Shown: positions 1,804 through 61,149 of the stretch, in pieces
How positions within the stretch are numbered: position 1 is the stretch's first letter
How the letters are laid out: each line of letters begins with the position of its first letter
Origin: Minisyncoccia bacterium
GTDB taxonomy: Bacteria > Patescibacteriota > Minisyncoccia > Phycocordibacterales > UBA9973
NCBI GenBank assembly: GCA_039809245.1
Contig: JBDHUP010000003.1
Coordinates: forward strand, 41,069-105,068
DNA: 64,000 nt
Direction of reading: 5' to 3'
Position numbers and translations under genes: made by a program
Notes under the pieces: generated by a model
The model's input: the letters and a program-made list of their open reading frames with translations, nothing else
What the model was told of the DNA's origin: nothing
The model's database searches: none

Positions 1804-3249
1804 TTAATTCTTCTTTACCCAATTATGCTTTGATTTCCTTGTGATAAATTTTTCATGACCAAATGGTACTAACTTTATTACTGGCAGGGCTTTCTCGTGT
1901 ATAGAATTATAAAGTTTTCTGTATTCTGTATTTAGTTCAACTAGATGTTTTAATATTGATTCAGAAATAATTTTATTAGTTTTTTCTGATACGGATACAT
2001 GTTGTTTTAATTCAATCTCTATGTTAAATATTTGTTCTCTAAAGTCACTAGACTGTTCTACTTGAACTATATACTTACCAGTTACTAGCGGAATAACTTC
2101 ATCATCTTCAAGACCAGCCTTTATGTTTTCAGGATAAATATTTAATGCATAGAAAGTAACCAATACATCATTCCTACCTTTAAGTATTAGTATTGAACCT
2201 TTCCATTTGTTTATATACTTTTTTATCTCGCTGTTGTATCCATGTCTCTTAAGTATCGCTTTAACTTGAGTTTGCGATAAAAGAGTTCCATGGTCCTTTA
2301 TATTATATCTAATTAATGGAATACCTGCCATTGCTGTGAAAACTAATTCACCATTTATTATTTCAAAATACGTTTTATGAGGATAATACATAACGGTTGT
2401 TGGAATGAACGACATTGGTCCATACAGTTCTTTTTTTAAACTTGTATCTTTAAGTGATAATTTTCTTAGTGTTATTGTAAGTGGAGTTTCGTGACCTATT
2501 GCTCCTGCATCAGCAGTACCATATATAGATATAGTACGAAATTCATCTTTAGGAGTATGCGTGATTTTATGAACTAATTCACGCCATTTTTCTGAAAAAT
2601 TCTCACCTGCAAGTATAAAATACATGTCCAACTTCTTGAAATTTACACCAGTAGCTTCTGCGTCAACAATGATATCCATTAAAAAAGGTGGGTATCCGAA
2701 TAAAATTAATGAATCAAAACCTTCTGTAAAATTCTTAAGCACTGATATAGTATCATTTACATCTATCCCAGGAGTTATAACGGTAATTTGAAATCCCTTT
2801 TTCCTTGCAACTTCTCTTATTGACGCCAAGGTAAATGTGCCTGCTATCCAGTTCCCCATAGAAAAACATATAACTACAAGTACCTTTTTGCCTTTTAATT
2901 TAAAGATATCTTGCAATATAATATTATGAAAAACTCCACCCCAAACTTCATGTTCATCATCTCGCGGCCAATAGAATGGCTGTCCTGAAGATCCAGAACT
3001 AGCAGAAATCATCGCTGGTACCTTATTATTAGGTAGCAAATCAGTAAAATTATGAGCTCTTAGGTAATTATTTTTGTCGGTAATTGGTAATGTTTCAAAG
3101 GCTTCTCGTGTTTTTATTAAGTTTGGTTTGATACCATATTTTTTAAGAAAATCTCTATAAGCTTTTACTTTTTTTACTGCAAATGAAAATGTTTCTATTG
3201 GTAAAAATTGTGATTTATTTGTGTTTTGCTTTTTTCTTTTTTTGTTCAT
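1804..3249 (-). CDS. adenylate-forming enzyme, phenylacetate-CoA ligase (PaaK) / coenzyme F390 synthetase-like family
   Basis: P-loop-like SSGSSGQP (compare TSGTTGKP of PaaK-type ANL enzymes). The 481 aa length and motif spacing fit the PaaK/F390-synthetase/CapK clade. One-nt gap to the downstream HK; 35-nt overlap with the upstream dehydrogenase. Confidence 0.55.
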   Translation of the reverse strand: MNKKRKKQNTNKSQFLPIETFSFAVKKVKAYRDFLKKYGIKPNLIKTREAFETLPITDKNNYLRAHNFTDLLPNNKVPAMISASSGSSGQPFYWPRDDEHEVWGGVFHNIILQDIFKLKGKKVLVVICFSMGNWIAGTFTLASIREVARKKGFQITVITPGIDVNDTISVLKNFTEGFDSLILFGYPPFLMDIIVDAEATGVNFKKLDMYFILAGENFSEKWRELVHKITHTPKDEFRTISIYGTADAGAIGHETPLTITLRKLSLKDTSLKKELYGPMSFIPTTVMYYPHKTYFEIINGELVFTAMAGIPLIRYNIKDHGTLLSQTQVKAILKRHGYNSEIKKYINKWKGSILILKGRNDVLVTFYALNIYPENIKAGLEDDEVIPLVTGKYIVQVEQSSDFREQIFNIEIELKQHVSVSEKTNKIISESILKHLVELNTEYRKLYNSIHEKALPVIKLVPFGHEKFITRKSKHNWVKKN

Positions 3250-8590: not shown

Positions 8591-9541
8591 TTAGATGATT
8601 ACATTACCTTTTTGAATTTCATTAACTGTTGGGCTGTTTATAAAATCCGTCCAAGGGATAAGTACATCTGTCGTCTGTTTATAAATACATATACGTACAT
8701 AATACTCGTTCATTATACGTTCTACTCTAACTCCATAGAATCCCTCATAGCACTTATCCTTTGCAGGACAATTGCTACAAATACTATTTAAGTAATATGG
8801 AAAAGCTATTTTAACAGATAGAATTTTGCCTTCAGAAGTAATATAGCGATTGGTGACATTAGAACTACCAGCTCTTTGATACCCGTTAATTTTAGAGGCA
8901 CCAAGATTTTTTAGTATATCTTCAATCACTTCCTGGCTTTCAAATGGTTCAACTAGATTATTTAATAACCTAATTTCCGGAACTCTGTCTTTTTGCAAAT
9001 TTAACAATGTTTTTACAGATTTTAACGTTTTATCAAAGTCACCATAAGCAACGATGTTAATTCTTGAATCTATACCACTTTCTACGATATTCTTAACATT
9101 ATTAAACTGGTTTTCCAAAGCATTTTCCGCCCATGATAAATTCTTCTTAACAGATTCCAGGCTTAGTAAGTCTTTGGCAGATGTATCGTGAATGCTGACA
9201 ACAACTTTTGTAAGACCAGCATTCTTGAATTTGCTCCACTCGTCGACTGAGATTTTTTTTATGCCATTTGTAGTTACAGAGATTTCATCGGACAATTTAC
9301 TTAATCCTGAAACAATAGACATAAACTCAGGGTGTATGGTAGGCTCTCCTCCGGTTAGCATTATTCGGCCTATGGCTGTCTTTTTCATTATCTGATCTAT
9401 ACAGTTGTAGAAATCATCATTAGGTATAACGTTCTTGATATTTTTCATATCTCCTTCTTCATGACAAAAAGAGCAAGTACGGTTACACGTGCCAGTCAAT
9501 TTTATTCTAATTGCTGGCATAGTTATGGTCATGTTTTCCAT
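8591..9541 (-). CDS. radical SAM enzyme, MoaA-like (GTP 3',8-cyclase family) / viperin-like
   Basis: CNRTCSFC (CxxxCxxC). MLTGGEPTIHPEF (compare MoaA RLTGGEPSL). VTTNGIKK (compare VTTNGyrL). AGLTKVVVSIHDTS (compare GLtginvSvDSLD). C-terminal CSNCPAKDKC auxiliary cysteines. Confidence 0.75.
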   Translation of the reverse strand: MENMTITMPAIRIKLTGTCNRTCSFCHEEGDMKNIKNVIPNDDFYNCIDQIMKKTAIGRIMLTGGEPTIHPEFMSIVSGLSKLSDEISVTTNGIKKISVDEWSKFKNAGLTKVVVSIHDTSAKDLLSLESVKKNLSWAENALENQFNNVKNIVESGIDSRINIVAYGDFDKTLKSVKTLLNLQKDRVPEIRLLNNLVEPFESQEVIEDILKNLGASKINGYQRAGSSNVTNRYITSEGKILSVKIAFPYYLNSICSNCPAKDKCYEGFYGVRVERIMNEYYVRICIYKQTTDVLIPWTDFINSPTVNEIQKGNVII

Positions 9542-9556
9542 TTTTTACTTTTTAAA

Positions 9557-10168
9557 TTAAAGATATTGTTTTACTCCATGAAATATACTTACTAAATCTA
9601 ATGATTCAGAATTATATTTATAAATTTGGAAAAGTGATTTATTTTGAACTTCTTCTATAAAAGGATATATCCTTTGGTTAAAAAGTTTCATCCTTTTATT
9701 AAATTCATTCTCATTAGTGTCGTCTCTCTTGAGCATTTCCTTATTATGAATTGGGCAAAGATCTCCTATCAATCCAGGGAAATTACAAATTGGGCAAACT
9801 ACTCTGCCAAAAAATCTTTTTCTTAAAATTTCTTCAGAAGCTTCAAGATATATACCAAAAATAATGTTGTATCCTTTTGAGAGTTCTGAATACTCTATTT
9901 CAGATATTGGATACCCTGAGATACTAGCTAATGGTTTACTACAATCATAATGGTTATTAATAAGCTTAAGATCGTCATCAGGATTTATTGGTAGATTTTT
10001 ATCAATGTTGTATTTTAGATTTTTCCCCAAAATTGATTCCTTTTGAATTTCTTCTCTTTTTATATCCCCAAATGATATATATGGTAATCCGAATTCTAAT
10101 TCTATTTTTTTGCCAAGAGAGCTTTTCCCAGAGGAGGTGTTTCCTAGGATTATAACTAGCTTTTTCAT
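9557..10168 (-). CDS. adenylate kinase-like NMP kinase with Zn-finger LID
   Basis: P-loop GNTSSGKSSLGKKI. LID RFFGRVVCPICNFPGL...CPIHNKEMLKRDDTNENEFNKRMKLF (compare AK GRRxHxxSGRxY...RxDDxxEtvxkRL). Sixteen nt upstream of the rSAM gene. Confidence 0.65.
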   Translation of the reverse strand: MKKLVIILGNTSSGKSSLGKKIELEFGLPYISFGDIKREEIQKESILGKNLKYNIDKNLPINPDDDLKLINNHYDCSKPLASISGYPISEIEYSELSKGYNIIFGIYLEASEEILRKRFFGRVVCPICNFPGLIGDLCPIHNKEMLKRDDTNENEFNKRMKLFNQRIYPFIEEVQNKSLFQIYKYNSESLDLVSIFHGVKQYL

Positions 10169-12862: not shown

Positions 12863-13075
12863 TTATTTAGTTAGATCCTTTGTTGTTAAGTAATACCATA
12901 GAAGTTTTGGCCAACCAAAAATTGTCTTAATTCTTTCTTTACGGCTTGGATGATCACCATCTGATAAACTTAGTAAAAATCCTATTCCTAAATAAATTGT
13001 TACTGCTATACATAGAAGTAATATTGCAAGAATTAGTAATATTTTAACTTCCATACTGGTTAGTAATATAATCAT
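12863..13075 (-). CDS. hypothetical small membrane protein
   Basis: 70 aa ORF with one long hydrophobic segment LLILAILLLCIAVTIYLGIGFLL. No recognised motif. Confidence 0.3.
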   Translation of the reverse strand: MIILLTSMEVKILLILAILLLCIAVTIYLGIGFLLSLSDGDHPSRKERIKTIFGWPKLLWYYLTTKDLTK

Positions 13076-13163
13076 TTTTTAGTTTTTTTATTGAGTTTAA
13101 ACAATATTTTAAAATCAATAGTAGCAAAACTACAGAATATGTAAATAGAAAAAGAGAGGATAA

Positions 13164-22071: not shown

Positions 22072-23550
22072 TTATTTAACAGTTACATGTATCCTTGATA
22101 TATCTTTTGGTAGATACTTATTCCAAGGTGGGAATATTTTAGCATCTGCTCCTGCAATACCAGGGTCAGATTTGAAAAATTCTGTAAGATCTTTCTTTGG
22201 AATTCCAACTAGGGACAATTTTATCTTTTCTACATCTGGGTGCCATATAGCATTCACTGATCCATTAAGAGCAAAAGGTACAGATTCCATATCTTTTGTA
22301 ATAGTCTGATCACTGTTTGTAAATTTAAATGATAAAGCTGAAATGTCTGGTATCTCTATTTCATTACGTTCACTATTAGTAATATCAGGTAGTGTGCGAT
22401 TTATAATAGAATTAGTTATATCACTTTTCTTAAAGATAATAGCTGATAAAGTTCCATCTATATTGACTTTTGTTTCCGGAGTTTGCGATTGAGCCCCTCC
22501 AATAGTATACGCAAACCTTGTTGCATCAGGATAAAGAATATAACCTTCTGGAACTTCCGCATTAACTTTCTTTATCATTCTACTCTTAAAAGCAGACCCC
22601 GCTGTGGCATTAAGTGAACCCCTATCAGCAGCCCCTAGTATATATGTAAGACCTTGAGCACCACCAGATAAAGGAGTTGTAGACTTTGCATAAATCTTCT
22701 TAAACTTATCAGTATCTTTAAATCCATTTATTGTAAAATCAGTTGGATCACCATTATATTGATCACCTGAAATAAAAGCTGTAATACCGACACTAACTTC
22801 TCCAGGCACAATCTTACCATCAACTATCTTATATCCTGGTATTGTTACCGCTTTGTCTGTTTGATAACTCTTGCCATCAGCATCAGAAATAAATGTCTTA
22901 GTTAGTAGATTCTGTGGTTTGGTACTGTACTCATTATAAAAAGTTACTGTACCTTGAGCTTTCTGTGATAGGTTTTGAGATTCAGTTAGTACAATATCTT
23001 TAGATTCAGTGTCAGAGACTATCATTATCTCAAAATGTACCGGGGCTTTTGAATCCTTTAGAGCTGTGAATTGAAGATTGCTTAAGGCTAAGTCTTGATG
23101 TTTCTCTCTTATTATTACTGATGTCTTCTCAAGAGCAACACCACCCCAATAAACTAAACCTAAAAATACTACACATACAAGCAAGGCTATTAAAGATCTC
23201 CTAACTAAACCTGATTTCTTCCTAAGCCTTGGTGTTTGTGATAATCTTTTTACTGTTTCACTACTTATTACAGTATTGCTCTCGACAGGCATGTTATCTT
23301 TCTTTTCATCACTTGATTTCTTAATAGCTTTCCACCCTGTAACAAAAACAGAGCTCTTCTTTAAGGATTCATCTTCCAAAAATTTCTTATGCTCGAGGGT
23401 GTCTTCAACTTTTGCTATTTCTGGTTTTTCAGGAATTTCAAGTTTTTTAACTAGTTCTTCTTTTGGTAGTTGAACCTCCTTTTCTTTTTCAGGAATTTTC
23501 TTAACCCTAGTGCTATTTAGTTTCATGTCCATCATTATCTTTTTGGTCAT
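22072..23550 (-). CDS. hypothetical bitopic membrane protein (K/E-rich cytoplasmic N-term, one TM, ~350 aa extracytoplasmic domain)
   Basis: TM LIALLVCVVFLGLVYWGGVAL near residue 125. No recognised catalytic motif. One-nt gap to the upstream actin-like gene. Confidence 0.4.
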   Translation of the reverse strand: MTKKIMMDMKLNSTRVKKIPEKEKEVQLPKEELVKKLEIPEKPEIAKVEDTLEHKKFLEDESLKKSSVFVTGWKAIKKSSDEKKDNMPVESNTVISSETVKRLSQTPRLRKKSGLVRRSLIALLVCVVFLGLVYWGGVALEKTSVIIREKHQDLALSNLQFTALKDSKAPVHFEIMIVSDTESKDIVLTESQNLSQKAQGTVTFYNEYSTKPQNLLTKTFISDADGKSYQTDKAVTIPGYKIVDGKIVPGEVSVGITAFISGDQYNGDPTDFTINGFKDTDKFKKIYAKSTTPLSGGAQGLTYILGAADRGSLNATAGSAFKSRMIKKVNAEVPEGYILYPDATRFAYTIGGAQSQTPETKVNIDGTLSAIIFKKSDITNSIINRTLPDITNSERNEIEIPDISALSFKFTNSDQTITKDMESVPFALNGSVNAIWHPDVEKIKLSLVGIPKKDLTEFFKSDPGIAGADAKIFPPWNKYLPKDISRIHVTVK

Positions 23551-29845: not shown

Positions 29846-31141
29846 TTATAGAGGTAGGTTTGCAGGTGGTTTTGCAATTTTTGATTCTATACGCTTAAAG
29901 CTTGGAGTCTCAGAAACCATACCTGGGAAGTGAAAGATAGTTGCAAGTTCACGAGTCGACATTACAAATATTTCCGGAGAACCAGAAGGGAAAAAAGCTT
30001 TAATTACAGCTGGATATTTGAAAGAATACTGAAGTGGCGGGTGAAAGAATGTCCTCATTCGGAAAAAGTTCAAAGATCTCTTTTTATATTTAGTAAGGGC
30101 AAGACCTGTTGGATCAGACCAAGGAGCATCAAACTGAGTAGAGTTTATACGATTTAATTCGTTTATATCTGGTTGAGCATATTGACGAAATACTAAACGA
30201 GAAGCACGTCTAAGATTCTGGAATTGTTCATCTGTACATAAACGGTTATCTGAAAGTGTCATAATTCTTATACCACAATCAAAGTGTATCAGACTTGCAT
30301 TTTCAACCATCACTTTCACTTTATTTTTTAGTGGTTCTGGGGTACGCATATCTGCACCAATAGTATCTCCATTATCATTCTTCTGAAAACGAGTGTATGG
30401 TAAGAGCATATGTTCAATATATTCAAAAGTTGCATCGTAGAAATCTACATGCTTTCCAGTTTTGTGACTATGGTATTTCTTTATGCTTTGTCTTATTACA
30501 ATTTGTATCCACATTTGTTGACCTCTTGGTAATGAACCCAGAAATTCTATAACCGGAGTTATGGGGTCAATCTTGTACTCTTCTTTAGTTCCACTGTCCA
30601 TTTCTTCCATGTCTCTGTAGGTTCTTATTGGAAGAAAATCAGGTTTTAATTTAGTAAATTCACAACCCCAGATACTCCAGTCCCCATCTTTCTTATATTG
30701 TGGAACATGGAGAGTATAATCTTCGGCTTCAACAACTTTTGCTTGAGGATACTGAGCATATATTTGTGTTTCAACTAAATCTCTTATACGAGTTGGTGTT
30801 CTAATAAAAAAGTGAACCTTACCATCTATCGAAGCCATCTCAAGCGAGAACCAGAACCATGGGGCACCTTGAACATATTGCTCCCAAAATCCTTTACCAC
30901 TCTTGTGATAGAAAGCATTCGAAAGTATTAACTCCATTGCTGCTGGAGATTTAATAACTTCGCGAGGAACGTGCACTTCAAGAAGGACCCATTTTATACC
31001 CATAATAAATCGCTCTTGGCGATAATGATGCCAGAGGTGAAGAGCGATATATGTTAGAGGAATAGGCATTAGGTACCCTATTGTAACTAATAGTATTTGG
31101 ATTAAGTTAAAATTATGTGTAGAGAAAAAATCTGTAATCAT
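29846..31141 (-). CDS. hypothetical membrane-anchored protein
   Basis: 431 aa with an N-terminal TM helix. No recognised motif. ATG at 31139-31141 lies one nt after the stop of a 46-aa TM ORF. Confidence 0.4.
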   Translation of the reverse strand: MITDFFSTHNFNLIQILLVTIGYLMPIPLTYIALHLWHHYRQERFIMGIKWVLLEVHVPREVIKSPAAMELILSNAFYHKSGKGFWEQYVQGAPWFWFSLEMASIDGKVHFFIRTPTRIRDLVETQIYAQYPQAKVVEAEDYTLHVPQYKKDGDWSIWGCEFTKLKPDFLPIRTYRDMEEMDSGTKEEYKIDPITPVIEFLGSLPRGQQMWIQIVIRQSIKKYHSHKTGKHVDFYDATFEYIEHMLLPYTRFQKNDNGDTIGADMRTPEPLKNKVKVMVENASLIHFDCGIRIMTLSDNRLCTDEQFQNLRRASRLVFRQYAQPDINELNRINSTQFDAPWSDPTGLALTKYKKRSLNFFRMRTFFHPPLQYSFKYPAVIKAFFPSGSPEIFVMSTRELATIFHFPGMVSETPSFKRIESKIAKPPANLPL

Positions 31142-45598: not shown

Positions 45599-46099
45599 AT
45601 GAAAAAAGGAAAATCATTTGTCCCCTACCATTATGTAGGAGGAACACCTGCCTTAGGCTTAAACAAATTAATTGCTACTACAGACGGATCTGACCAACGC
45701 ATATGTGAAACTTGTGTAAATCGTTGTTTGATCGGTATCCCGAACATGACTGACTGTTGCAATCAAAACGCAAAAAAGGCTTTTGGTGCCGGTGAAAAAG
45801 TTGTGATGCCTAAGAAACTACACGGCCAACATGTTGGTAATTTCTGCCCTTTCTTTGAAAAAAGCCAATCAGCAAGTTCTATTACAATGAACAGCTATGC
45901 TTCAACGATGACTAACAGTTTGGATGTTCCTGAGGCAGTGATTCAGGAAAAACCAAAAGCTATGTTTATTGCCACAAAAAACGGCCGGTATTATTATCCT
46001 TCTGATTACAAATTACCAGGAAACGTAAACCAGGAGAAAATACGGCGCTTTGATTCCGTAGAAGAAGCTATCAACGCAGGGTATGTGCCAAGATTTTAA
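45599..46099 (+). CDS. hypothetical Cys-rich protein with C-terminal Ada-Zn-binding-like fold lacking the Cys ligands
   Basis: N-terminal CETCVNRC...DCCNQN...FCPFF. The C-terminus FIATKNGRYYYPSDYKLPGNVNQEKIRRFDSVEEAINAGYVPRF parallels the Ada N-terminal FxxxxxtgIyCRPsCxxxxxxxxnvxfFxSxeeAxxaGyRPC with Cys replaced. Confidence 0.35.
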   Translation: MKKGKSFVPYHYVGGTPALGLNKLIATTDGSDQRICETCVNRCLIGIPNMTDCCNQNAKKAFGAGEKVVMPKKLHGQHVGNFCPFFEKSQSASSITMNSYASTMTNSLDVPEAVIQEKPKAMFIATKNGRYYYPSDYKLPGNVNQEKIRRFDSVEEAINAGYVPRF

Positions 46100-47968: not shown

Positions 47969-48484
47969 ATGTCACACGAAGCAACAAATGAAAAAGACCA
48001 TAAAGAGACGTCTATTCATACACCAAGAGTCCAGAGGGCTAAGGGTGTAAAAATTGGAATTTATCTTTTTTTAGGATTGATAGCGTTAATTGCGTTAACA
48101 ATCATAAATAATAGAAAGAAAGAAGAAAGGAAATCAGGAACACAAAGTTCATCATCCGCAAAAAGTTCTAATGTAATTGCATGTGATTTCACATACAATG
48201 CATTAGATATTCCTTACGGCGATAGCTTAGTATTTCAATTAGATCCAGGTAAATCAGCTTTGGTAAATCTGACAAACGACTGGTGTCCTTACTGGTCATC
48301 AAGTCAAACTGATACCTATGATGAAAATCATGTTAAGAGGGTATTAGAAAAAGCGAGGTTTATACAAGGTCCACCTTTAAGCAAGAATAGCCAGTATCTG
48401 GTATTCCAAAACACTAAACAAAATTCAGTAACCCTTAAAATTGGTAGGTCAGAAAAACTTGACTACAATGCCTACCATTTTTAA
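47969..48484 (+). CDS. hypothetical single-TM membrane protein
   Basis: TM IGIYLFLGLIALIALTII. 171 aa. A 20-codon SD-preceded uORF (47929-47991) overlaps its start. Confidence 0.4.
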   Translation: MSHEATNEKDHKETSIHTPRVQRAKGVKIGIYLFLGLIALIALTIINNRKKEERKSGTQSSSSAKSSNVIACDFTYNALDIPYGDSLVFQLDPGKSALVNLTNDWCPYWSSSQTDTYDENHVKRVLEKARFIQGPPLSKNSQYLVFQNTKQNSVTLKIGRSEKLDYNAYHF

Positions 48485-48498
48485 AAAAAAATCATTTT

Positions 48499-49572
48499 AT
48501 GGACAACATAATTAATGACAGCTGGTTACTTTTTGGACTAGCCGTTGCATGGTTTATCTCTAGCCTTTTAAAGGTAAAACCATTTAAAATTAAAAATGGT
48601 GAAACGAAAGATGGTCATCCAAAATATCAGATCGTTTCATTTTCTACAGTTATTGCATTAACAGGAGCGGTTTTATTTACTGCTTTATTCTTATCTTCAC
48701 TTGTAAATTTCCAAACTGATACTGATGGTGTAGCTTTGATTTGTTTACTTGCGTGTCTTAAATTTGTTTGGAATGGAAGTAAGCAAGTTGCATACAAAAC
48801 CCAAACCGGTTTATTTGATCTTATAAGTGGAAAACCAATAGAGACATTAAGTACTGGTATACATCTTACCGATCCGTTGTTAGAAATGGCAACAATAAGC
48901 ACTAACGGTGAACCAGATATAAGCGCTGATTTACAGGAATTGGAAATCGAAATTCCACAATTAGACTGGATTCAGTCAGCCGACAGTGGATTCCAAGTCC
49001 TTGTTAAGGAGATCAGCTTCATGATTGAGTTAGAACTCGAAGATGTTAAACAATTGTTTGATATTGAAGGTGGAGCTGAAAAGGTCAGAGACAGGATTGT
49101 TAAATTCACAAGAGATTTTTTCCGCGATGAAATCCCAGAGTTTATGGCTGAAGAGATTGACCAGGATAAAAGAGCTGTTATTGCTTTATTGGCTGACAAG
49201 TTAAAATCGGATTTGAATAAATTTTGCGAGGAAAGTCATTATCCTTACAGGATACCTGATGATTCAAAAATTATCATCGGAGATACCCAACTGGAAGATG
49301 ATTACTACGCCGCAATGAAAAAGAAAAAACTTGCCAAGCTCGAACAAAAAGCACTTGATGTTGCCGCAAAACGTACAACCAAGAGACTTCTTAAGAGAGG
49401 TAGAGAACTTCTACCTAATGGCTCAGAAGATGCACAGCTTAAAGCAGCTCAGGTTTCACTTGGAATTACTCCAAAAACAGTAGAAGAAAAAAGCTTCGCT
49501 GTTAGTGGAGACCTCTTAGGTGCTATTAAAACAGGATTAGGAAATATGAAAATACATATTTCAAAAAACTAA
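48499..49572 (+). CDS. hypothetical polytopic membrane protein (possible SPFH/band-7-like C-terminal region)
   Basis: Three N-terminal TM segments, then a coiled-coil-rich soluble region. Similarity to SPFH is weak and unverified. Confidence 0.3.
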   Translation: MDNIINDSWLLFGLAVAWFISSLLKVKPFKIKNGETKDGHPKYQIVSFSTVIALTGAVLFTALFLSSLVNFQTDTDGVALICLLACLKFVWNGSKQVAYKTQTGLFDLISGKPIETLSTGIHLTDPLLEMATISTNGEPDISADLQELEIEIPQLDWIQSADSGFQVLVKEISFMIELELEDVKQLFDIEGGAEKVRDRIVKFTRDFFRDEIPEFMAEEIDQDKRAVIALLADKLKSDLNKFCEESHYPYRIPDDSKIIIGDTQLEDDYYAAMKKKKLAKLEQKALDVAAKRTTKRLLKRGRELLPNGSEDAQLKAAQVSLGITPKTVEEKSFAVSGDLLGAIKTGLGNMKIHISKN

Positions 49573-49592
49573 TTAAATAAAATGATTAGTAA

Positions 49593-49625
49593 ATGGCCGT
49601 CTGCAATGCAGATGGCCATTTTTTA
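49593..49625 (+). terminator. bidirectional terminator between convergent genes
   Basis: atggccgtctgca-at-tgcagatggccat (one G-U pair) flanked by aaa / tttttatttt. Confidence 0.65.
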
Positions 49626-51104
49626 TTTTGGAGCTTGAATAGCCACCCAGTAATCAAAGTTCCCAGTTAATGCATCTTTTCTATAATATCGCTCTTCTAA
49701 AATTGTTTTGTCTATTACTTGCGATATCCTGCTATAACCTTTCAGTTTAGCTATTTGTATAAGTGCGTTATTAATCGCGATACTCCTTGCTGTTGAATAA
49801 TCAGAGTCTGTACCAGAGTCAATAACTCTATAGAAACTAGCATCTGATGTATAAGTATTCTTTAGAGGATTAGTCTTAGCACTTCTATGTGAAGGATTAG
49901 GAAGGGTTTGAGGTGGAGTTATATTGAGTAGATTACAGTCTGAAGAACTACCTCCATTTATCGGACCTCTTGCGTCCCACCATATATAATAATTCTTCGT
50001 TACTTTATCATACGCACTAAGTACCCCATATGGTGTAGGTAAGTTTGCTGGTGTATCTTTATCATCTAAATTGTTTTCTGATAGATAGTCTTCTCTGACT
50101 TTAACTTTTATGTCTTGAAGAGCTTGGTATTCACTTTTGGCACTAACATATATCTCTTTACGCCAACAGTAAGGACTTTCTTGGAATTTACTTGTGAATG
50201 GACTTTTTGTATAGTCTCCAATATAGTTTTCTACATTAGGCTCTCCTATATTATCTCCACCTAGTTGATTTATCTCATATACAGTGGCTGTATTTTGAGA
50301 GAATACAATAGAATCTGGAAGAATAGGTGTTGAATTTTGCACTTGCTCTAAAGTACAACTAGACACAATCGTGCCATCATCTTTTGGAGCTCTTATATCT
50401 ATCCAAGCATAGTATAATTTTGCTTTTTCATCATATAAAACTTTTGTTGCAAATATAACAGGATAGCTCTTCTTACTAGGATCTGTTTTAAGAATATTAT
50501 TCTCTACTAGATATTGACTACGAGCATTTTCTTTAACCAAACTAAGAACATCCTCACTATCACTTCCCTTACTAAACATTACTCTATTCCAGCAAGAAGA
50601 ACTTGGTTTATACTTAGGAAAAGGTGAGTTGGTAAACATTTCAGGAGTTATTTTTATGGTTGTAACGCTATCTTTTATGGTGTAATTTTGTGGTAATAAA
50701 TCACCTGTTTTAGGATCTATTCCATTCCTATCTTGAAGTTGAGCACTATTGTCAGAATTTATAAGGGTTCCATTATTTGGATCTACTTTCATTCGATCAA
50801 CAACGAAGTCACCATTATTATTTATCTTTATAGAATTCTCACCGAAAGTACTTAAGATTAACTTCATTATTCCAAAGACTGCAACCATGATAAATAATCC
50901 TATTATACCCCAGAGCATTATTGACTTACTTTTCTTATGGACTTCCTCATTGCCCGGAGAGAGCAAGTATTGAACAAGTCCATAAAGAAAATACGCCATA
51001 GCACAGGCAAACATGAAAAGTATGATAGGGTTAATTACAACCTTATCAATACTTTTCACTAGCGAAAGCACGCTAGCCTCTGCAACTGGAACAATATGAA
51101 ACAT
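49623..51104 (-). CDS. pilin-like two-helix module (VirB2/TrbC-like topology) fused to ~400 aa extracellular repeat domain
   Basis: N-terminus helix1 IILFMFACAMAYFLYGLVQYLL, loop SPGNEEVHKKSKS, helix2 IMLWGIIGLFIMVAVFGIMKLILSTFG. The C-terminal domain carries three YYxWxDxRxPxxGG-like repeats (KLYYAWIDIRAPKDDG, KNYYIWWDARGPINGG, FDYWVAIQAPK) and paired Cys. Confidence 0.5.
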   Translation of the reverse strand: MFHIVPVAEASVLSLVKSIDKVVINPIILFMFACAMAYFLYGLVQYLLSPGNEEVHKKSKSIMLWGIIGLFIMVAVFGIMKLILSTFGENSIKINNNGDFVVDRMKVDPNNGTLINSDNSAQLQDRNGIDPKTGDLLPQNYTIKDSVTTIKITPEMFTNSPFPKYKPSSSCWNRVMFSKGSDSEDVLSLVKENARSQYLVENNILKTDPSKKSYPVIFATKVLYDEKAKLYYAWIDIRAPKDDGTIVSSCTLEQVQNSTPILPDSIVFSQNTATVYEINQLGGDNIGEPNVENYIGDYTKSPFTSKFQESPYCWRKEIYVSAKSEYQALQDIKVKVREDYLSENNLDDKDTPANLPTPYGVLSAYDKVTKNYYIWWDARGPINGGSSSDCNLLNITPPQTLPNPSHRSAKTNPLKNTYTSDASFYRVIDSGTDSDYSTARSIAINNALIQIAKLKGYSRISQVIDKTILEERYYRKDALTGNFDYWVAIQAPK

Positions 51105-51115
51105 ATTAAATTATA

Positions 51116-51475
51116 TTAACAAAGTGTTTGTCCAGGACCAGGAATACAAGGGATTTCGTTACGCTGTAATTGTACAGAACCTACACCAAAGGTATTTGAT
51201 ATAACTCTTATAATACCCCAGAAAGCAATGATTACGAATAATCCGATCAAACCTTGGATGATAGCACCTCTTGCCTTCTTCTTCTTCTCTTCATCAGTAG
51301 ATACTGTATATTGGATAACACCCCAGATAAAGTACACAACTGCAAGTGTAATTAATATAGGTATAATAGTAGCCAATATTTGATTTATTTTGGTAAGGAT
51401 ACTATCTGCATCCGCTGCCAAAACAACAAAAGGAGCAAAACCAAGCGCTGCACTAAATGCAATAAATTTCTTCAT
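51116..51475 (-). CDS. secreted pilin-like protein, signal peptide + helix-loop-helix (VirB2/TrbC-like)
   Basis: Signal peptide MKKFIAFSAALGFAPFVVLA|AD. helix1 ...IIPILITLAVVYFIWGVIQYTV, loop STDEEKKKKARG, helix2 AIIQGLIGLFVIIAFWGIIRVISNTFG. C-terminal Cys pair. Confidence 0.5.
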   Translation of the reverse strand: MKKFIAFSAALGFAPFVVLAADADSILTKINQILATIIPILITLAVVYFIWGVIQYTVSTDEEKKKKARGAIIQGLIGLFVIIAFWGIIRVISNTFGVGSVQLQRNEIPCIPGPGQTLC

Positions 51476-51606
51476 ACTTTTTATCTAATTAATAATAAAT
51501 AACTTAATAATACTTTTCCCTACTCCTGCCGACCGCAGACAGTAAGATTTACACTAAATGTTACACTTATATTATATCACAAAGCTATCTTATATAGGCA
51601 ATACCT

Positions 51607-51978
51607 CTATTGTGATAACTGTGGAATAAGTGTTTTGATGCCAAATGTGTTTGTAAGGACACCAACTAGCCCCCACATACTTATCATTACAAAGAGTGTT
51701 ACCAGACCCCATATCATATAATTCTTTCCCTTTTTACGCTTTTCTTCATTATCAGCATTGAGTACATATTGAATTATCCCCCAAATAAATCCAGCTGTAG
51801 CCAGAGTAAAGAGCAGTGGAACTATAGACTTTATTATTGTACAACTAGCCCAATTAAATAAATCACCTATACTTTTCTTTGGTTCTATACTCGTACATGC
51901 AGTTGCATAATCATCCGCAAAAGCGAAAAGTGGAAATAGTCCCGAAACAATAAAAAATGAAATGATTCTCTTCTTCAT
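51607..51978 (-). CDS. secreted pilin-like protein, signal peptide + helix-loop-helix (paralogue)
   Basis: Signal peptide ...LFPLFAFA|DD. helix1 IVPLLFTLATAGFIWGIIQYVL, loop NADNEEKRKKGKN, helix2 YMIWGLVTLFVMISMWGLVGVLTNTFG. Confidence 0.5.
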   Translation of the reverse strand: MKKRIISFFIVSGLFPLFAFADDYATACTSIEPKKSIGDLFNWASCTIIKSIVPLLFTLATAGFIWGIIQYVLNADNEEKRKKGKNYMIWGLVTLFVMISMWGLVGVLTNTFGIKTLIPQLSQ

Positions 51979-51981
51979 ATA

Positions 51982-52761
51982 TTACTTCTTTTGATTAGCT
52001 TGATCTTGTGTTTTAATCTCATCGACCGTTCCTTTAATGGCATTGGCTATTACATATGAACCTAGCAACAATGCTGACCCAATCAGTGTGTAGAGTAGTG
52101 CTTTCTTTGCTTTCCCGAGCTTTTCAGAATTACCTTGAGCGGTAACAAACAGGAAGCCACAATATATAATAGCTAGCGTTATAATCGGTATACCTACAAT
52201 AAGAACAAAGTTCAAGATAGCCTCTATTAGAGATGGTATATCATTTATGCCATCGATAGGATTCTTTATGCCTGTAGTAACTTTTACACCACCAGTATTA
52301 TCAGTTCCAGCTGGAGTATTATTTGTATTATCAGTTCCAGCTGGAGTTGAATTAGTGTTATTAGTTCCAGCTGGTATTATTGGAGGTGTAGATGTCGCCT
52401 CTTTTAGAGTTCTAAAGTGCTGATTGTTTGAGTATTGTTGATTATTTGAATTTGCAGAATCAGTACTATATATAACTACCGCATAATCAGTATCAGGGGT
52501 TAAATTAGAATATGATTTCTGAACAGGTTTATTAGGTAAGATAGTAAAACTTTCATCTTTATAATATCCATCTTCCCCAGAAACAGATAGAGTTACAGGA
52601 GTAGATTCTGGTCCAGAATAAGAAACCGAAAAGTTAACTGATCTAGTGCTAGGATTTATCGAGAACGAGAAAAAGTTAGCATCAGCAAAAGAATGGTTCG
52701 CCTGAACAAAAAACAGCATTATAACAAATATGGATGTGATTATTTTCTTGATATTTTTCAT
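51982..52761 (-). CDS. secreted protein with N-terminal beta-rich domain, PAGT/N-rich repeat linker and C-terminal pilin-like helix-loop-helix module
   Basis: Signal peptide ...VQANHSFA|DA. Repeat TPAGTNNTNSTPAGTDNTNNTPAGTDNT. C-terminus helix1 LIEAILNFVLIVGIPIITLAIIYCGFLFVTA, loop QGNSEKLGKAKKA, helix2 LLYTLIGSALLLGSYVIANAI. Confidence 0.5.
   Translation of the reverse strand: MKNIKKIITSIFVIMLFFVQANHSFADANFFSFSINPSTRSVNFSVSYSGPESTPVTLSVSGEDGYYKDESFTILPNKPVQKSYSNLTPDTDYAVVIYSTDSANSNNQQYSNNQHFRTLKEATSTPPIIPAGTNNTNSTPAGTDNTNNTPAGTDNTGGVKVTTGIKNPIDGINDIPSLIEAILNFVLIVGIPIITLAIIYCGFLFVTAQGNSEKLGKAKKALLYTLIGSALLLGSYVIANAIKGTVDEIKTQDQANQKK
52287..52380. repeat. three imperfect ~30-nt tandem repeats (ttatcagttccagctggag core) inside the 51982..52761 CDS
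   Basis: The agttccagctgg core recurs at a ~30-nt period, encoding PAGT(D/N)NTN(N/S)T. Confidence 0.7.
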
Positions 52762-52783
52762 ATAATTTTAGTATTAATAATAA

Positions 52784-53200
52784 CTACTTTAAGAATGTTT
52801 CCCCTTTAAATCCAAGAGCAGAGAAAATTGTTTTAACTATGAGCCATGCTGCCAGAGCAAGAACATAACCTATGACAATATTTTTAATAATTTTCTTTGC
52901 TTTCGTAATCTTTTCTGAGCTACCACCTGAGAAAAGTAGCAGAGCTCCAGCATAACAAAGGGCTATAGCTGCTATAGGAGTCGCTAAGTAGAACAAGAGG
53001 AAGGTAATAACATTATTAATCAACTGCATAAAGTATTCAAAGTTACAAGGATGAGCAATAGAATAAGAATTGTGGCCTTGTGAATCAGTCGTGCTAACAA
53101 CCTTGCCACAATCAGGAACTATTCCAGCCGCATAAGAAACCATAAGTGGAGAGAAGAGTATCGTGAATGCTATTATAAATGTAATTATTTTCTTATACAT
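52784..53200 (-). CDS. secreted pilin-like protein, signal peptide + helix-loop-helix (paralogue)
   Basis: Signal peptide ...SPLMVSYA|AG. helix1 VITFLLFYLATPIAAIALCYAGALLLF, loop SGGSSEKITKAKKI, helix2 IKNIVIGYVLALAAWLIVKTIFSALGF. Confidence 0.5.
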   Translation of the reverse strand: MYKKIITFIIAFTILFSPLMVSYAAGIVPDCGKVVSTTDSQGHNSYSIAHPCNFEYFMQLINNVITFLLFYLATPIAAIALCYAGALLLFSGGSSEKITKAKKIIKNIVIGYVLALAAWLIVKTIFSALGFKGETFLK

Positions 53201-53203
53201 AAA

Positions 53204-54511
53204 TTATTTCTTTGTTAAAAATTCAAGTTGGGTTTGAGCCTTACTAATGGCATTATCTAGGGATAATTTATTTGATATTATGTTTTGTATTAATTCAGAG
53301 AATACTGAATCACTACCTACGCTATCTGGATCAAGCCATGTTCTAGTAATAATTGCTGAATTAAAAAATGTAAATAGGTAAGGATCAGTTGGTTTATCTG
53401 CGAGTAAGGCTTTTGAAGCTGGTGGTAGTGATACAGCTATAGCGAGATTCTTTGCTGAATCCCCTGTAGTCAATATACCTGCAACACTAAAAGCTGTTGT
53501 AAGATTTGAAGATTTTTTATTTACAGCAAGTGCATATATCTTACCGTATGTTCTTTTAGTATTTGTACCTCTGGTCTGCAGAGCTTGAGTAACATCGAAG
53601 CTTAAGTTTGGATTAACTGATTGAATTTTAAATAACTCACTAGCACTACCGATATAGAAAGCGCTTTTACCACCAGTAAATGCATCTATAGAATTTGGCA
53701 ATGCTCTGTTCCAAGAATATGCGGGTAGTGTCGGATTTGAGAACTCTGTAAAGAAATTAAGTACAGCTTCTATAGAAGATGTAGGTTTTGAAGAAGAATT
53801 GTCACTAAGAACAGAAGTGTAGCCTCCTTTGCCATTTGATGCAATTATAGGATTACCATTTTGAAGGAGCAGTGTCGCTAGTATATCTTTTGCGTGAGTA
53901 ATATTATCAAATCTACCTAAAGCTATCATACTCTGCAATATTGTACCGTCATCTTTCTTCTTCGTAAGCTGGGAGACAAGGTTAAATAATTCATCCCAAT
54001 ACTGTGGTGGCTGAACTATGCCTTCATTAGAAAGAATATCTTTATTGTAATACAAGACAATAGGATCAACGACTACTGGAAAACCTATGACTCCATCATT
54101 ATCAAGATACACTGATGACCCATCGATGAATGAATCTCTAAATGTTTTCTCTGGGTAACTTGCATAAGGGATTTTATATATAAAGTCAGAATCTTTCTGA
54201 ACCATATCAGGAGTTATAAAAAATAAATCAGGTCCCTTACCAGTAGCAAATGCTTCTATTAGATCTTGCTGGTAGTCTGATTCCTTTTTTATAACATAAC
54301 TTATAGTTAGTTCTTTGTTTGCATCTCTTGTATCATCAAAGACTTTAAATATGTTTGGGTCGTTAAAAGTACCCCAAATAACAATCTTGCCTTGTGGAGT
54401 ATTTGCTTTGTTTGAAGTCCCGCCTATTTTTAATATTCCTGAGAAAATCAAAACAGCAAATACAAAGAATGCTAAAAAGATTGCGACTAAGATTGTTTGA
54501 AAATTATTCAT
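53204..54511 (-). CDS. membrane-anchored extracellular solute-binding protein (SBP family 1-like), no adjacent permease/ATPase
   Basis: N-terminal TM anchor, about 400 aa periplasmic-binding-protein-like two-lobe region (KIVIWGTF...; YYNKDIL). Family assignment is by overall architecture only. Confidence 0.45.
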   Translation of the reverse strand: MNNFQTILVAIFLAFFVFAVLIFSGILKIGGTSNKANTPQGKIVIWGTFNDPNIFKVFDDTRDANKELTISYVIKKESDYQQDLIEAFATGKGPDLFFITPDMVQKDSDFIYKIPYASYPEKTFRDSFIDGSSVYLDNDGVIGFPVVVDPIVLYYNKDILSNEGIVQPPQYWDELFNLVSQLTKKKDDGTILQSMIALGRFDNITHAKDILATLLLQNGNPIIASNGKGGYTSVLSDNSSSKPTSSIEAVLNFFTEFSNPTLPAYSWNRALPNSIDAFTGGKSAFYIGSASELFKIQSVNPNLSFDVTQALQTRGTNTKRTYGKIYALAVNKKSSNLTTAFSVAGILTTGDSAKNLAIAVSLPPASKALLADKPTDPYLFTFFNSAIITRTWLDPDSVGSDSVFSELIQNIISNKLSLDNAISKAQTQLEFLTKK

Positions 54512-55035
54512 TACAATGTAAAAATTATACCATAATGATGGTCTGGAAATGAAATTCTGCTTGATTCCTTTAAACCTCTTTTACTAAAAAGCTCACTTGC
54601 CCTATCCTCTGTGACAACATGATTACGAGCAGGACCCATACCAGAAAAAGAATCTGTCCAGTCTATTAACATAATCTTACCATTTGATTTTAAAATACGT
54701 TTAGCTTCATCAATAAGACCTATCTTATCATCAACCTGAAATAAAATATTAGACATTATGACTACATCTATGCTTTTGTCTGCAATTTTTGTCCCACCTA
54801 GTTTTTCAACATCACCCCAAATACAACTCACATTAGAAATGCCTAGATCTTTTAGATCACTTTCAAGCTTCTTAACCATATCTTTCTGAACTTCTACAGC
54901 GTAAACTTTACCCGTAGATCCAACTTTCTTACTACAAGCTTTAGAATAAAACCCAGTTCCAGCTCCTAAATCAGCAACATACATGCCTTCATGCAATGAA
55001 AGTGAAGAAACAATTTGTTCTGGGTTTGCAAACAT
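54511..55035 (-). CDS. class I SAM-dependent methyltransferase (small, 174 aa)
   Basis: Motif I VADLGAGTGFYS, acidic motif II VYAVEV, motif III DVVIMSNIL. Confidence 0.7.
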   Translation of the reverse strand: MFANPEQIVSSLSLHEGMYVADLGAGTGFYSKACSKKVGSTGKVYAVEVQKDMVKKLESDLKDLGISNVSCIWGDVEKLGGTKIADKSIDVVIMSNILFQVDDKIGLIDEAKRILKSNGKIMLIDWTDSFSGMGPARNHVVTEDRASELFSKRGLKESSRISFPDHHYGIIFTL

Positions 55036-55055: not shown

Positions 55056-57503
55056 TTACAAACAGGTAATAGAAGCAATACTGTCCCCTGCTCGCATTTT
55101 CATAATTGTCACACCTTGAGTCTGGCGGCCAGATGTAGGGATAGATTTAAGGTCAACACGTATAACTTGGCCTTTCTGTGAGACGGCAATTATTTCATTT
55201 TCATCACCAACAATTTTTGCAACGATAAGCTTACCAGTCTTTGGAGTTACTTTTGCAGTCTTAATACCTGATCCGCCACGCTTTTGAGTTTTATATTCTT
55301 TTATATTAGTTTTCTTTCCGAGACCATTTGAAGAAAGAGTAAGTAAGGCAAGAGTATTCTCTCCTTTTGGTACTCTATCTACTCCTATAATGAAGTCACC
55401 CTTACCTAGCTTCATAGCGCGCACTCCTCCAGCTTGGCGACCCATTTCACGTACATCTTGCTCTTTGAATCGTATAGATTGACCTAGAGTAGTTGCAAGC
55501 ATCACATCATCACCTTTAACTATCGCTACCACTGCTTGCAATTCATCGTCTTTAGATAAAGATATAGCTATCAAACCACTCCTTCTTACGTCTTTGAAGC
55601 TCTCTGCTGAGACTTTCTTAACAACTCCCATCTTTGTAACCATCATCAAATGTTCAACGGTTTTCTTCACCTCTTTATCTATAGGAAGTATAGAGGTAAC
55701 TTTCTCATCACCTTCGAGTGAAATGAAGTTCATTATTGATTTACCTTTTGTGGCTCTCTTACCTTCTGGAATATCATACATTTTAATCTGATAAGCTTTA
55801 CCAAGATTAGTGAAGAATAGTAAGTCGCTGTGAGTGTTTGCAGAGATAAGCATAGTGACGAAGTCTTCCTCCTTTGGCTCAATATCTATGACACCGACAC
55901 CTCCACGCTTCTGAGCGCGATATTCACTAGGATCTGTACGCTTTACATAGCCACCTTTTGTAAATACTAAGACTGATTCTTTCTCTGGGATTAGATCTTC
56001 TTCGTTTATAGCTTTAACCCCACCTTTTACTATTCGTGTTCTACGATCATCTGCATGCTTTTCTTTAATATCTTTCAATTCATCACTTATGACTTTAAGC
56101 ATCTTCTTTGGACTTGCAAGAAGAGCTTCTAGTTCTTTTATTAATTCTTGCTTTTCTTTTAATTCAAGTTCAACATTTTTGCGCTCCAAACCTGCTAGTT
56201 TCTGAAGCTTCATTTCCAAGATAGCTGTCGCTTGTAAATCAGAGAATTTAAACTCTTTCATTAAGTTAAGCTTTGCAGTTGCAGTATCTTTTGATGAACG
56301 GATGACTGTGATAACACGATCTATATGATCTAGAGCTTTCTTTAGTCCGAGTAATATATGTTCACGTTCTTTTGCTCGACGAAGATCATACTCAGTACGA
56401 CGACGGACAACTACAACACGGTGACCAATGAATTCATTGAGTAAACTCTTAAGTGATAATGTCTGTGGTACTCCGTCAACAAGAGCCACTATATTGAAGT
56501 TAAATGACTGCTCAAGCTGAGTATGTTTATATATATAGTTTAAAACTTTTTGAGGAAAGACTCCTGATTTCAAATCGATAACAATACGGATATCTTTAGT
56601 AGATTCATCTCGAAGACCTTTTACTCCTTCCAATTTCTTTTCTTGAACAAGTGCGGCGATGGCTTCAATAAGGGCAGATTTATTAACTCTATATGGAATA
56701 GAAGTAATTACAATTTGGAAAGTACCACTTTTTTGTTCAACTATTTCTGCTTCACCGCGAGTAACAACACCGCCACGACCAGTAGAGTATGCGTGCAATA
56801 AATCTGCTTGGCCATACACGATTCCCCCAATTGGAAAATCAGGACCTTTAACAAACTCCATCAGATCTTCTGTTGTTGCATCTTTGTTATCAATAAGGTG
56901 AATTGTGGCATCAATAACTTCAGATAAATTATGTGGCGGAATATTTGTCGCCATTCCAACTGCAATACCTAAAGTTCCATTTAGAAGTAAACTCGGAACA
57001 GCAGTAGGGAGAACGCTTGGTTCTTTACGTGTTTGATCATAGTTCGGACGGAAATCTACTGTCTCTTTTTCAAGATCGAGCAACAACTGAGAAGATATCT
57101 TAGCCATCTTTGCTTCCGTATAACGCATAGCTGCGGCATTGTCACCATCTATTGATCCAAAGTTACCTTGTCCGAAAATAAGTGGATAGCGATATGAGAA
57201 ATCTTGAGCCATACCTACCATAGAGTCATATACGGCGACATCTCCGTGAGGGTGGTACTTACCGAGCACATCTCCGACTACTGTTGCACTTTTACGGAAG
57301 CGACCCTGATAAGTCAAGCCCATTTCATGCATAGCATATAAAATACGTCTATGTACCGGCTTTAGTCCATCACGCACGTCAGGCAAAGCACGATCAGTAA
57401 TAACAGACATCGCGTAGTCGATGAACGATTCTTTCATTTCAGAACTTATATTTACTGAAACAACGTTTACATGTTCTTTTTTAATTTCTTCTTCTTTAGC
57501 CAT
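55056..57503 (-). CDS. gyrA: DNA gyrase subunit A
   Basis: [20 protein letters not shown], active-site region AAMRYTE, beta-pinwheel C-terminal repeats. 815 aa. Confidence 0.93.
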
Positions 57504-60528: not shown

Positions 60529-61149
60529 ATGGAAAACAACACTGAAAAAAATGACAATCAACCTAAAGTCGAGAACGTTCCTGTTTTAAAATCAAAAGCC
60601 CGAAGATACACAGAGAGTGCTTGGGATCTAGTTAAATTCGCAGCAATTGCACTTGCGATAGTTATTCCTGTCAGAATGTTTATAGCTCAACCATTCGTAG
60701 TCAGTGGTGATTCTATGTTCCCTACTTTCCACAACGGTCAGTATCTAATAGTAGATGAAATATCCTACATACTTAAAGGCCCACACCGAGGTGATGTTGT
60801 TATCTTCCGTTATCCGAACGATACAACTCGATTCTTCATCAAGCGTATCATTGGCTTACCAAATGAAAAGATAGATATTAAAAATGGTGTTGTTACTATC
60901 ACTAATGCGGAGAATCCAAAAGGTTTCACTCTTGATGAGCCATACATAGACGAAAAGTTCTCATCTACAGATAGTTATACAACTGGCCCGGATGAATTCT
61001 TTGTTATGGGTGATAATCGTAATCGTAGTTCTGATTCTCGAGTTTGGGGACTACTCCCTCGTAAACTTATGGTTGGAAGAGCTTATTTAAGACTATTACC
61101 ATTTAGCGACATAGGATACCTCCCAGGTGCATATGTCGAAGCAAAATAA
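60529..61149 (+). CDS. lepB: signal peptidase I
   Basis: SGDSMFPTF (catalytic Ser), ...KRIIGLPNEKI (catalytic Lys), GDNRNRSSDSR. Confidence 0.9.
   Translation: MENNTEKNDNQPKVENVPVLKSKARRYTESAWDLVKFAAIALAIVIPVRMFIAQPFVVSGDSMFPTFHNGQYLIVDEISYILKGPHRGDVVIFRYPNDTTRFFIKRIIGLPNEKIDIKNGVVTITNAENPKGFTLDEPYIDEKFSSTDSYTTGPDEFFVMGDNRNRSSDSRVWGLLPRKLMVGRAYLRLLPFSDIGYLPGAYVEAK

Follow-up and report, generated by a model that had tools for sequence, protein, structure and literature searches.

A gyrA-linked array of five VirB2-like pilin paralogues in a Patescibacteria genome

The locus

Five consecutive genes on the minus strand occupy positions 49623-53200 of the 64,000-nucleotide stretch analysed here, which we call the window (positions 41,069 to 105,068 of contig JBDHUP010000003.1, assembly GCA_039809245.1). 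They encode VirB2-like pilins of the family PF18895. On sequence grounds the host is a Paceibacteria-type member of the Patescibacteria (Candidate Phyla Radiation, CPR). By open reading frame (ORF) calling all five genes lie on the minus strand, and we number them in the order of transcription: pilin 1 (52784-53200, 138 aa), pilin 2 (51982-52761, 259 aa), pilin 3 (51607-51978, 123 aa), pilin 4 (51116-51475, 119 aa) and pilin 5 (49623-51104, 493 aa). The original prediction, made from the letters of the DNA, had described five consecutive genes sharing one module, and the coordinates, phmmer and HHalign all agree with it.

Two further minus-strand genes stand directly upstream. The nearer encodes a membrane-anchored, MalE-like solute-binding protein (SBP) of 435 aa (53204-54511; SBP_bac_8, E 5e-19), and the farther a small class I S-adenosylmethionine-dependent methyltransferase (MT) of 174 aa (54511-55035) with matches to Methyltransf_31 and Methyltransf_11. 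Before both lies gyrA (55056-57503, minus strand), recognised from its ORF and from synteny; it is a co-oriented upstream gene that we treat as context only, with no functional part in the system. The gaps from gyrA through MT and SBP to the last pilin are 20, -1, 3, 22, 3, 131 and 11 nt, the negative value being a 1-nt overlap of the MT stop with the SBP start. The claim of one tightly spaced run with gyrA is borne out; only one gap (131 nt) exceeds 22 nt. A bidirectional terminator-like hairpin with a 14 bp stem (49591-49621), found by pattern scan as a consensus match only, marks the end of both the pilin operon and a convergent gene.

The shared module

The module common to the five proteins consists of a short amphipathic lead-in, helix 1, a basic loop and helix 2. 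It had been described as about 65 aa long; the module itself holds up but that length does not, as the alignment covers about 85 residues. Pairwise identity among the five modules is 16-47% with a mean of 26%, the highest value belonging to pilins 3 and 4 (47%). With phmmer the window resolves into a subgroup of pilins 3, 4 and 5 (E 1e-15 to 1e-22) and a pair of pilins 1 and 2 (E 1e-8), bridged by pilin 4 and pilin 2 (E 5e-5). Phmmer links pilin 5 with pilin 3 (E 5e-18) and with pilin 4 (E 4e-16), and HHalign does so with probabilities of 99.5-99.8%. When profiles of the orthologues at each position are compared by HHalign, all ten pairs come out as homologous, with probabilities of 82.5-99.8% and E values from 1e-5 to 9e-29. 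As these profile comparisons measure it, the likeness among the five modules is far beyond chance. No sixth copy was found in the window by phmmer; a weak candidate at 12866-13078 proved to be a single-transmembrane peptide and not a pilin.

The best-conserved stretch is the end of helix 1 together with the predicted cytoplasmic loop, whose core reads (S/N)-E-(E)-K-x-x-K-(A/K/S)-K. The charged-loop motifs are as they had been quoted in the original prediction. Its statement that helix 2 ends in TFG or GF is right for four proteins (TFG in three, LGF in one) and wrong for the 259-aa protein, which ends otherwise.

Four of the proteins carry, by inspection, an n-region, a hydrophobic core and a small-x-small cleavage site (VLA|AD, AFA|DD, SFA|DA and SYA|AG), in keeping with the four Sec signal peptides with AxA-type sites first proposed. 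The fifth, the 493-aa pilin 5, has a leader of 10 residues only, in which A-E-A, just ahead of the mature lead-in, hardly varies (AEA|S). A gene for signal peptidase I (Peptidase_S26; LepB) lies about 7 kb from the array at 60529-61149 on the plus strand, and its product probably processes the four pilins that have signal peptides. Inspection found the prepilin motif G|F/M-T-L-x-E in none of the five sequences, and none matched a type IV pilin family in Pfam.

Family assignment

The assignment to PF18895 (T4SS_pilin) is direct. Against a gathering threshold of 26.6 bits, pilin 4 scores 47.9, pilin 1 41.9, pilin 3 39.0 and pilin 2 29.8; pilin 5 falls under it at 19.6 bits. The next specific family is TrbC/VirB2 (PF04956, gathering threshold 27.9 bits), to which pilin 1 (24.9 bits) and pilin 2 (23.8 bits) show a sub-threshold yet specific similarity (E 2-5e-5). 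A relative at locus L034 exceeds the TrbC threshold with 31.8 bits; an ORF of that locus (8972-9859) has two tandem pilin modules and is above the TrbC/VirB2 threshold. Homologues are nearly all tagged PF18895 in precomputed matches, often with PF04956 or PF19607 too, and some are named 'pilin' or 'Type IV secretion system pilin' by NCBI and JGI. With four of five proteins above the PF18895 threshold, PF04956 next in line and no prepilin motif, we agree with the earlier view that these are hairpins of the VirB2/TrbC type and not type IV pilins. The AlphaFold monomer modelling proposed as a check predicts helical hairpins in pilins 2 and 5.

The resemblance to VirB2, TrbC and TraA, the PF04956 pilins of the T-pilus and F-pilus, extends to layout: a putative cleaved signal peptide, two hydrophobic helices, a short basic loop and a mature length of about 100 aa. 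The differences are equally plain. Those systems have one pilin where the window has five paralogues, some with large grafts, in a monoderm envelope, and the window array is not adjacent to virB3-virB11. Comparison with the MPF-FATA hairpins gives a divided answer. Pilin 4 is above the 40-bit cut-off of NF045849, the NCBIfam model for a pilin-like conjugal transfer protein of Mycoplasma integrative and conjugative elements (represented by Mbov_0395), with 41.5 bits; the other four are below it (pilin 3 32.9 bits, the rest 18.7-20.1). PrgF of pCF10 is also a two-helix hairpin, of 75 aa, but HHalign detects no likeness between it and any of the five positional profiles (probability below 4%), and none for PrgG. 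A tblastn search with the 138-aa pilin against 72,556 plasmids returned no match.

It could be objected that short proteins with two transmembrane helices yield many weak matches to unrelated membrane families, and that these five are small holins or bacteriocin and immunity proteins whose likeness to pilins is merely compositional. We find this scarcely credible. Pfam, NCBIfam and PHROGs hold no holin or immunity family that matches any of them, contrary to one way in which the original prediction might have failed, and PF18895 is matched above threshold. Signal peptides do not fit holins, and neither do extracytoplasmic Cys pairs, one of which lies in the N-terminal segment of about 40 residues between the signal peptide and the module of pilin 1 and another at the C-terminus of pilin 4. 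The conserved chromosomal synteny with housekeeping genes in 29 genomes, described below, speaks against it as well.

Modular members

Two paralogues had been credited with large extracytoplasmic domains, and AlphaFold2 (AF2) and Foldseek support this for pilins 2 and 5. In pilin 2 the AF2 model (mean pLDDT 78) runs from a signal-peptide helix through a seven-strand beta sandwich and a disordered linker to the hairpin H175-207/H212-258. The sandwich (residues 31-117, about 52411-52671, minus strand; pLDDT about 90) matches fibronectin type III (FN3) domains in Foldseek with E 6e-5, probability 1.0 and a TM-score to the target of 0.6-0.7, so the Ig-like domain first noticed in this paralogue is an FN3-like sandwich. 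The linker is about 50 residues of low complexity, encoded by a 30-bp tandem repeat of 3.0 copies with 80% matches (Tandem Repeats Finder; 52294-52381, minus strand), and confirms the PAGT- and N-rich repeat linker seen earlier. The repeat encodes TPAGT(N/D)NTN, and its copy number might vary between strains, altering the length of the linker. The pilin module follows at about 51985-52251 on the minus strand by PF18895 and AF2. The copy of pilin 2 at NCBI is annotated as 245 aa, 14 residues shorter than ours; the longer ORF looks like the better start because the shorter one drops the basic n-region MKNIKK.

Pilin 5 has the opposite order. Its pilin module comes first (about 50820-51104, minus strand; hairpin H12-48/H53-86 in AF2) and is followed by three beta-alpha-beta-beta modules on the same strand, at about 50385-50594 (residues 171-240), about 49962-50168 (residues 313-381) and about 49629-49835 (residues 424-492). 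Mean pLDDT is 79 for the whole model and above 90 for the three modules. Three YYxWxDxRxP repeats had been reported in this protein. The three modules are there, but the third motif is degenerate (FDYWVAIQAP). Foldseek against the PDB found nothing for these modules at E <= 0.001 and only weak resemblances to GyrI-like and dodecin-type beta-alpha-beta-beta folds. An exhaustive HMMER search of 1.84 billion representative proteins recovered the C-terminal domain in 42 clusters with a varying number of repeats (270-892 aa), and in most of them it starts about 120-150 residues in, where a pilin module would end. From this distribution we take the domain to be restricted to this pilin family.

Grafting of this kind has a parallel in PilB of Streptococcus sanguinis, a modular type IV pilin (PMC8179133) in which an adhesive module is joined to a pilin core with plain pilins in the same locus. 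The parallel is one of analogy only, as the fold and machinery are unrelated and PilB has a prepilin leader and a single N-terminal helix.

The array in related genomes

A scan of species-representative genomes with the pilin 5 family gave 29 related loci (cited by L numbers where needed), all in metagenome-assembled genomes of Patescibacteria, Paceibacteria or Parcubacteria. Close homologues and syntenic loci come, without exception, from such genomes of Patescibacteria, Paceibacterota or Parcubacteria. Where the flanks are present the shared order is a metallo-beta-lactamase-fold protein, a 109-aa protein, GyrA, MT, SBP and then the pilins; the 109-aa protein is absent from a few of the most distant loci. 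The block of MT, SBP and pilins usually stands just after gyrA. It stays intact where gyrA is 1-1.7 kb away (L018, L025), and it is kept at loci whose GyrA is only 60-69% identical to that of the window (L027, L029-L034), the range across the compared genomes being about 60-92%. The flanks of the related loci contain housekeeping genes and no VirB4 or other T4SS (type IV secretion system) genes.

The SBP lies directly 5' of the first pilin in every locus with the upstream region present, and the MT lies directly 5' of the SBP in every related locus covering that region, including the two with a displaced gyrA. The original prediction had called the SBP an orphan; far from being an unrelated neighbour, it is the most constant partner of the array. 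It has an N-terminal transmembrane anchor, and its PDB matches are to distant MalE proteins. No permease or ATPase of an ATP-binding cassette (ABC) transporter is adjacent to it. MT and SBP form one conserved unit with the pilins and, we believe, probably act together with them, although the part of the MT in the system is inferred from synteny only.

A survey of array copy number had been suggested as a check, and it gives 4-7 pilins per locus, mostly five. With the window included, 21 of 30 arrays have five genes, and gene number and order are nearly fixed. Of the 525 best matches between loci within these 21 arrays, 520 pair genes that hold the same place in the array. Measured against the window, median identity comes to 89% for GyrA, 62% for SBP, 59% for MT and 60-72% for the five pilin cores; for the graft at the C-terminus of pilin 5 it is just 40%. 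The cores are thus 60-72% identical between orthologues and 16-47% between paralogues in the array. To judge from these comparisons, the five pilins are old, non-interchangeable positional orthologues under purifying selection, and fast evolution is limited to the grafted domains. The C-terminal domain of pilin 5 is missing in the more distant loci, and few relatives have the FN3 domain in pilin 2. Among other homologues there are some with a chitin-binding CBM_14, some with a Kazal module, and some with N-terminal extensions that lack a known domain. Pilins with such extensions, of 200-300 residues and with no Pfam domain, are found in L027 (6609-7790 and 8227-9102) and L023 (2825-3691).

These results bear on the idea, proposed for arrays in Patescibacteria after the model of Bartonella and Anaplasma (PMC12102498), that pilin arrays serve antigenic variation or a breadth of host specificity. 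On this account the five genes would be recent, interchangeable duplicates. Their low mutual identity (mean 26%) is like that of the published arrays, and the graft of pilin 5 does vary in repeat number and evolve fast. However, each position has its own orthologue across the whole range of GyrA divergence, orthologous cores are much more alike than paralogous ones, the set is nearly fixed at five in number and order, and variation is seen only in the grafts. Positional orthology combined with higher identity between orthologues than between paralogues argues against antigenic variation, and we consider a variation cassette very unlikely here.

Known arrays of PF18895 pilins

The original prediction had held this to be an undescribed, lineage-specific system. 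That cannot be maintained, because PF18895 is a curated family, homologues are already named pilins, and arrays of them have been published (PMC12102498, PMC10633639, PMC12857230). Screening 3,035 Patescibacteria genomes with PF18895, PF04956 and the CONJScan pilin profiles, Quinonero-Coronel et al. (2025; PMC12102498) found VirB2-like pilins in 1,948 assemblies. They report 441 arrays, defined as 2-11 pilin genes in tandem or one gene apart. Array pilins average 25% identity with a maximum of 54%, and many arrays are remote from virB4; one Paceibacteria genome in their table has an array at genes 60, 61 and 63 and virB4 at gene 160. The window array fits their definition, with five adjacent genes, a mean identity of 26% and a maximum of 47%. 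Among protein clusters specific to freshwater, PF18895 has also been reported to be the dominant Pfam domain.

The best experimental evidence comes from Southlakia epibionticum. Wang et al. (2023; PMC10633639) found by transposon sequencing that six PF18895 pilins beside its T4SS genes are essential. The pilins of strain ML1 (SEML1_0014-0019) resemble those of the window in matching PF18895 and, more weakly, PF04956 and PF19607, and both arrays are chromosomal in an ultra-small monoderm bacterium. Essentiality is known for this Saccharimonadia array only. A 2025 review of T4SSs (PMC12857230) describes the VirB2-like tandem arrays and discusses the possibility of a conjugative-type pilus in these monoderms, and Patescibacteria are thought to be the only monoderms capable of such pili (PMC12857230, PMC11665869).

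The window array shares with the published ones their tandem divergent paralogues of about 25% identity and the putative signal peptide plus helical hairpin. It differs in lying outside any T4SS cluster, after gyrA, an MT and a MalE-like SBP, in being a fixed set of five positional orthologues, and in having two modular members with FN3-like and beta-alpha-beta-beta domains. Our literature search found no description of the linkage to gyrA, MT and SBP, of a fixed five-member set or of modular members for Patescibacteria arrays. We regard the fixed set, the modular VirB2-like pilins, the MT and SBP partners, and the internal promoter and leader described next as modestly new relative to the published arrays.

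A conserved leader before pilin 4

The 131-nt region between pilins 3 and 4 (51476-51606, minus strand) is the sole sizeable gap in the operon, and it is conserved. On the minus strand it contains a TTG element (51601-51599), which precedes an extended -10, TGATATAAT (51579-51571), about 25 nt past the pilin 3 stop. TGnTATAAT or a near variant occurs at the same place in about 24 of the 29 loci, with the TTG element before it. Farther along comes a hairpin (51543-51522) with the loop GGTCG; relatives keep this loop as (G/A)GTCG but differ in the stem. Beyond it stands TTATTA (51510-51505), which is invariant and after which relatives often have AGGTCG. Rfam has no match in the leader. The consensus from RNAalifold is no more than a weak stem of 5 bp, as a bulge throws the alignment out of register. 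The region may work as a leader in the RNA or as an operator in the DNA. Its promoter-like elements lead us to infer a second promoter that would raise pilins 4 and 5. Pilin 4 would then be served by a conserved promoter of its own, and it scores highest against PF18895; we take it as the likely candidate for the major subunit.

What the pilins may build

We believe the best explanation is a chromosomal array of five VirB2-like PF18895 pilin paralogues that act as non-redundant subunits, assembled by a T4SS encoded elsewhere into a pilus or conduit, and we give this a probability of about 60%. The analysis establishes family membership, paralogy, the predicted hairpin fold, the domain grafts, conserved synteny and purifying selection; the mechanism that follows is our proposal. 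Each pilin would be exported by Sec, and four of the five would be cleaved by signal peptidase I. Each would then sit in the membrane as a helical hairpin with both termini outside and the Lys-rich loop in the cytoplasm. This topology fits because the graft of pilin 2 is N-terminal, after the signal peptide, and that of pilin 5 is C-terminal, after helix 2. The hairpins would be taken up by a monoderm-like T4SS of the Patescibacteria type (VirB4, TrsD, VirB3, VirB6), with genes elsewhere in the genome, which would build a pilus or short surface conduit through which the cell, as an epibiont, associates with a host cell. The five members would be structural subunits and not variants, with pilin 4 as the probable major one. 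Pilins 2 and 5 would show the FN3-like domain and the three fast-evolving modules outside, where they probably bind the host surface.

Several observations weigh against this explanation. We looked for T4SS genes across the 64-kb window and the 10 kb that come after it and found none. All the window pilins are under the gathering score of PF04956, and pilins 3, 4 and 5 give no match to it at all. Run against PDB sequences, the family profile yields only chance matches to G-protein-coupled receptors and none to the solved pilins VirB2 and TraA, and many unrelated helical hairpins match the predicted model as well as an archaeal pilin does. The name of PF18895 is an annotation; we know of no member for which a filament, lipid binding or dependence on a T4SS has been demonstrated. 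The Pro/Thr/Asn-rich linker between the FN3 domain and the hairpin of pilin 2 resembles the wall-spanning spacer of a membrane-anchored protein, so a role outside a filament fits it as well.

A relative with the same locus (L025), RAAC4_OD1_1, is informative on the machinery. Its gyrA-linked array is near gene 290, and a published catalogue places VirB6, VirB3, TrsD and VirB4 some 240 genes from it, at genes 531-535. The earlier statement that no VirB4, VirB6 or VirD4 lies within 10 kb of the array is correct, the neighbours being housekeeping genes. Its suggestion that the machinery is elsewhere or unknown is half right: the genes are absent nearby, but 'unknown' no longer applies given those of RAAC4_OD1_1. 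The same cluster counts against a T4SS pilus as well, in that the catalogue lists a PF18895 pilin of its own (gene 537), so the gyrA-linked set need not be a T4SS pilus. In the region of the array the catalogue lists a single gene, 287, labelled 'PrgF'. Its position fits the array, and it may be one of the array genes. One listed gene in this region implies that the array has been largely overlooked, at least in that genome.

The alternative that these points favour is that the hairpins are resident membrane anchors, perhaps in a hetero-oligomer with the SBP, which display modules through the wall or capture and take up substrate independently of a T4SS. Across the 29 loci the array is always joined to SBP and MT and nowhere stands beside T4SS genes, no ABC partner lies near the SBP, the linker of pilin 2 is of a typical wall-spanning kind, RAAC4_OD1_1 has a separate pilin for its T4SS, and a VirB2-type pilus would hardly accommodate grafts of up to 892 aa on each of its subunits. 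On the other side, other members of the core family lie inside T4SS clusters and are essential along with these. Conservation is highest at the end of helix 1 and in the loop, as expected if a cytoplasmic machine recognises the loop, and we found no precedent for an SBP working with two-transmembrane hairpins. We regard membrane anchors as the main rival reading, possible but rather doubtful.

The assembled pilus or conduit could also be taken a step further. The MT, the SBP and the five pilins might together be a distinct Paceibacteria organelle, a heteropolymeric pilus or conduit with host-binding grafts, which would work with this SBP without an ABC transporter, for example in capturing or importing carbohydrate from the host where epibiont and host touch, while the MT would modify the Lys-rich loops. 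We think this improbable as it stands. If true, T4SS-type pilins would here be coupled to an ABC-type receptor, for which there is no precedent.

Other features of the window

Two convergent genes on the plus strand (47969-49572) adjoin the array and encode a single-transmembrane protein of 171 aa and a membrane protein of 357 aa that matches SPFH/Band 7 weakly (E 0.0016). The 357-aa gene is again beside the array in L007, L008, L009, L016 and L024, and the 171-aa gene in L009, L016 and L024. The window has a G+C content of about 35%, and its other content is housekeeping, including DnaK, BipA, AlaRS, HisRS, FtsA, FtsZ and PriA. Three large minus-strand ORFs (1804-3249, 22072-23550 and 29846-31141; 481, 492 and 431 aa) belong to no Pfam family at E <= 0.01, and a Cys-rich protein of 166 aa (45599-46099, plus strand) has no Pfam match.

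Implications

The T4SS of Patescibacteria, with its unusual pilins, is essential in the one species tested. Five pilins that are conserved by position and under purifying selection argue for a multi-subunit structure. The modular VirB2-like pilins, with FN3, beta-alpha-beta-beta, chitin-binding or Kazal domains, are candidate host-binding parts that can be expressed. The constant MT and SBP partners are new candidates for accessory factors of such a structure.

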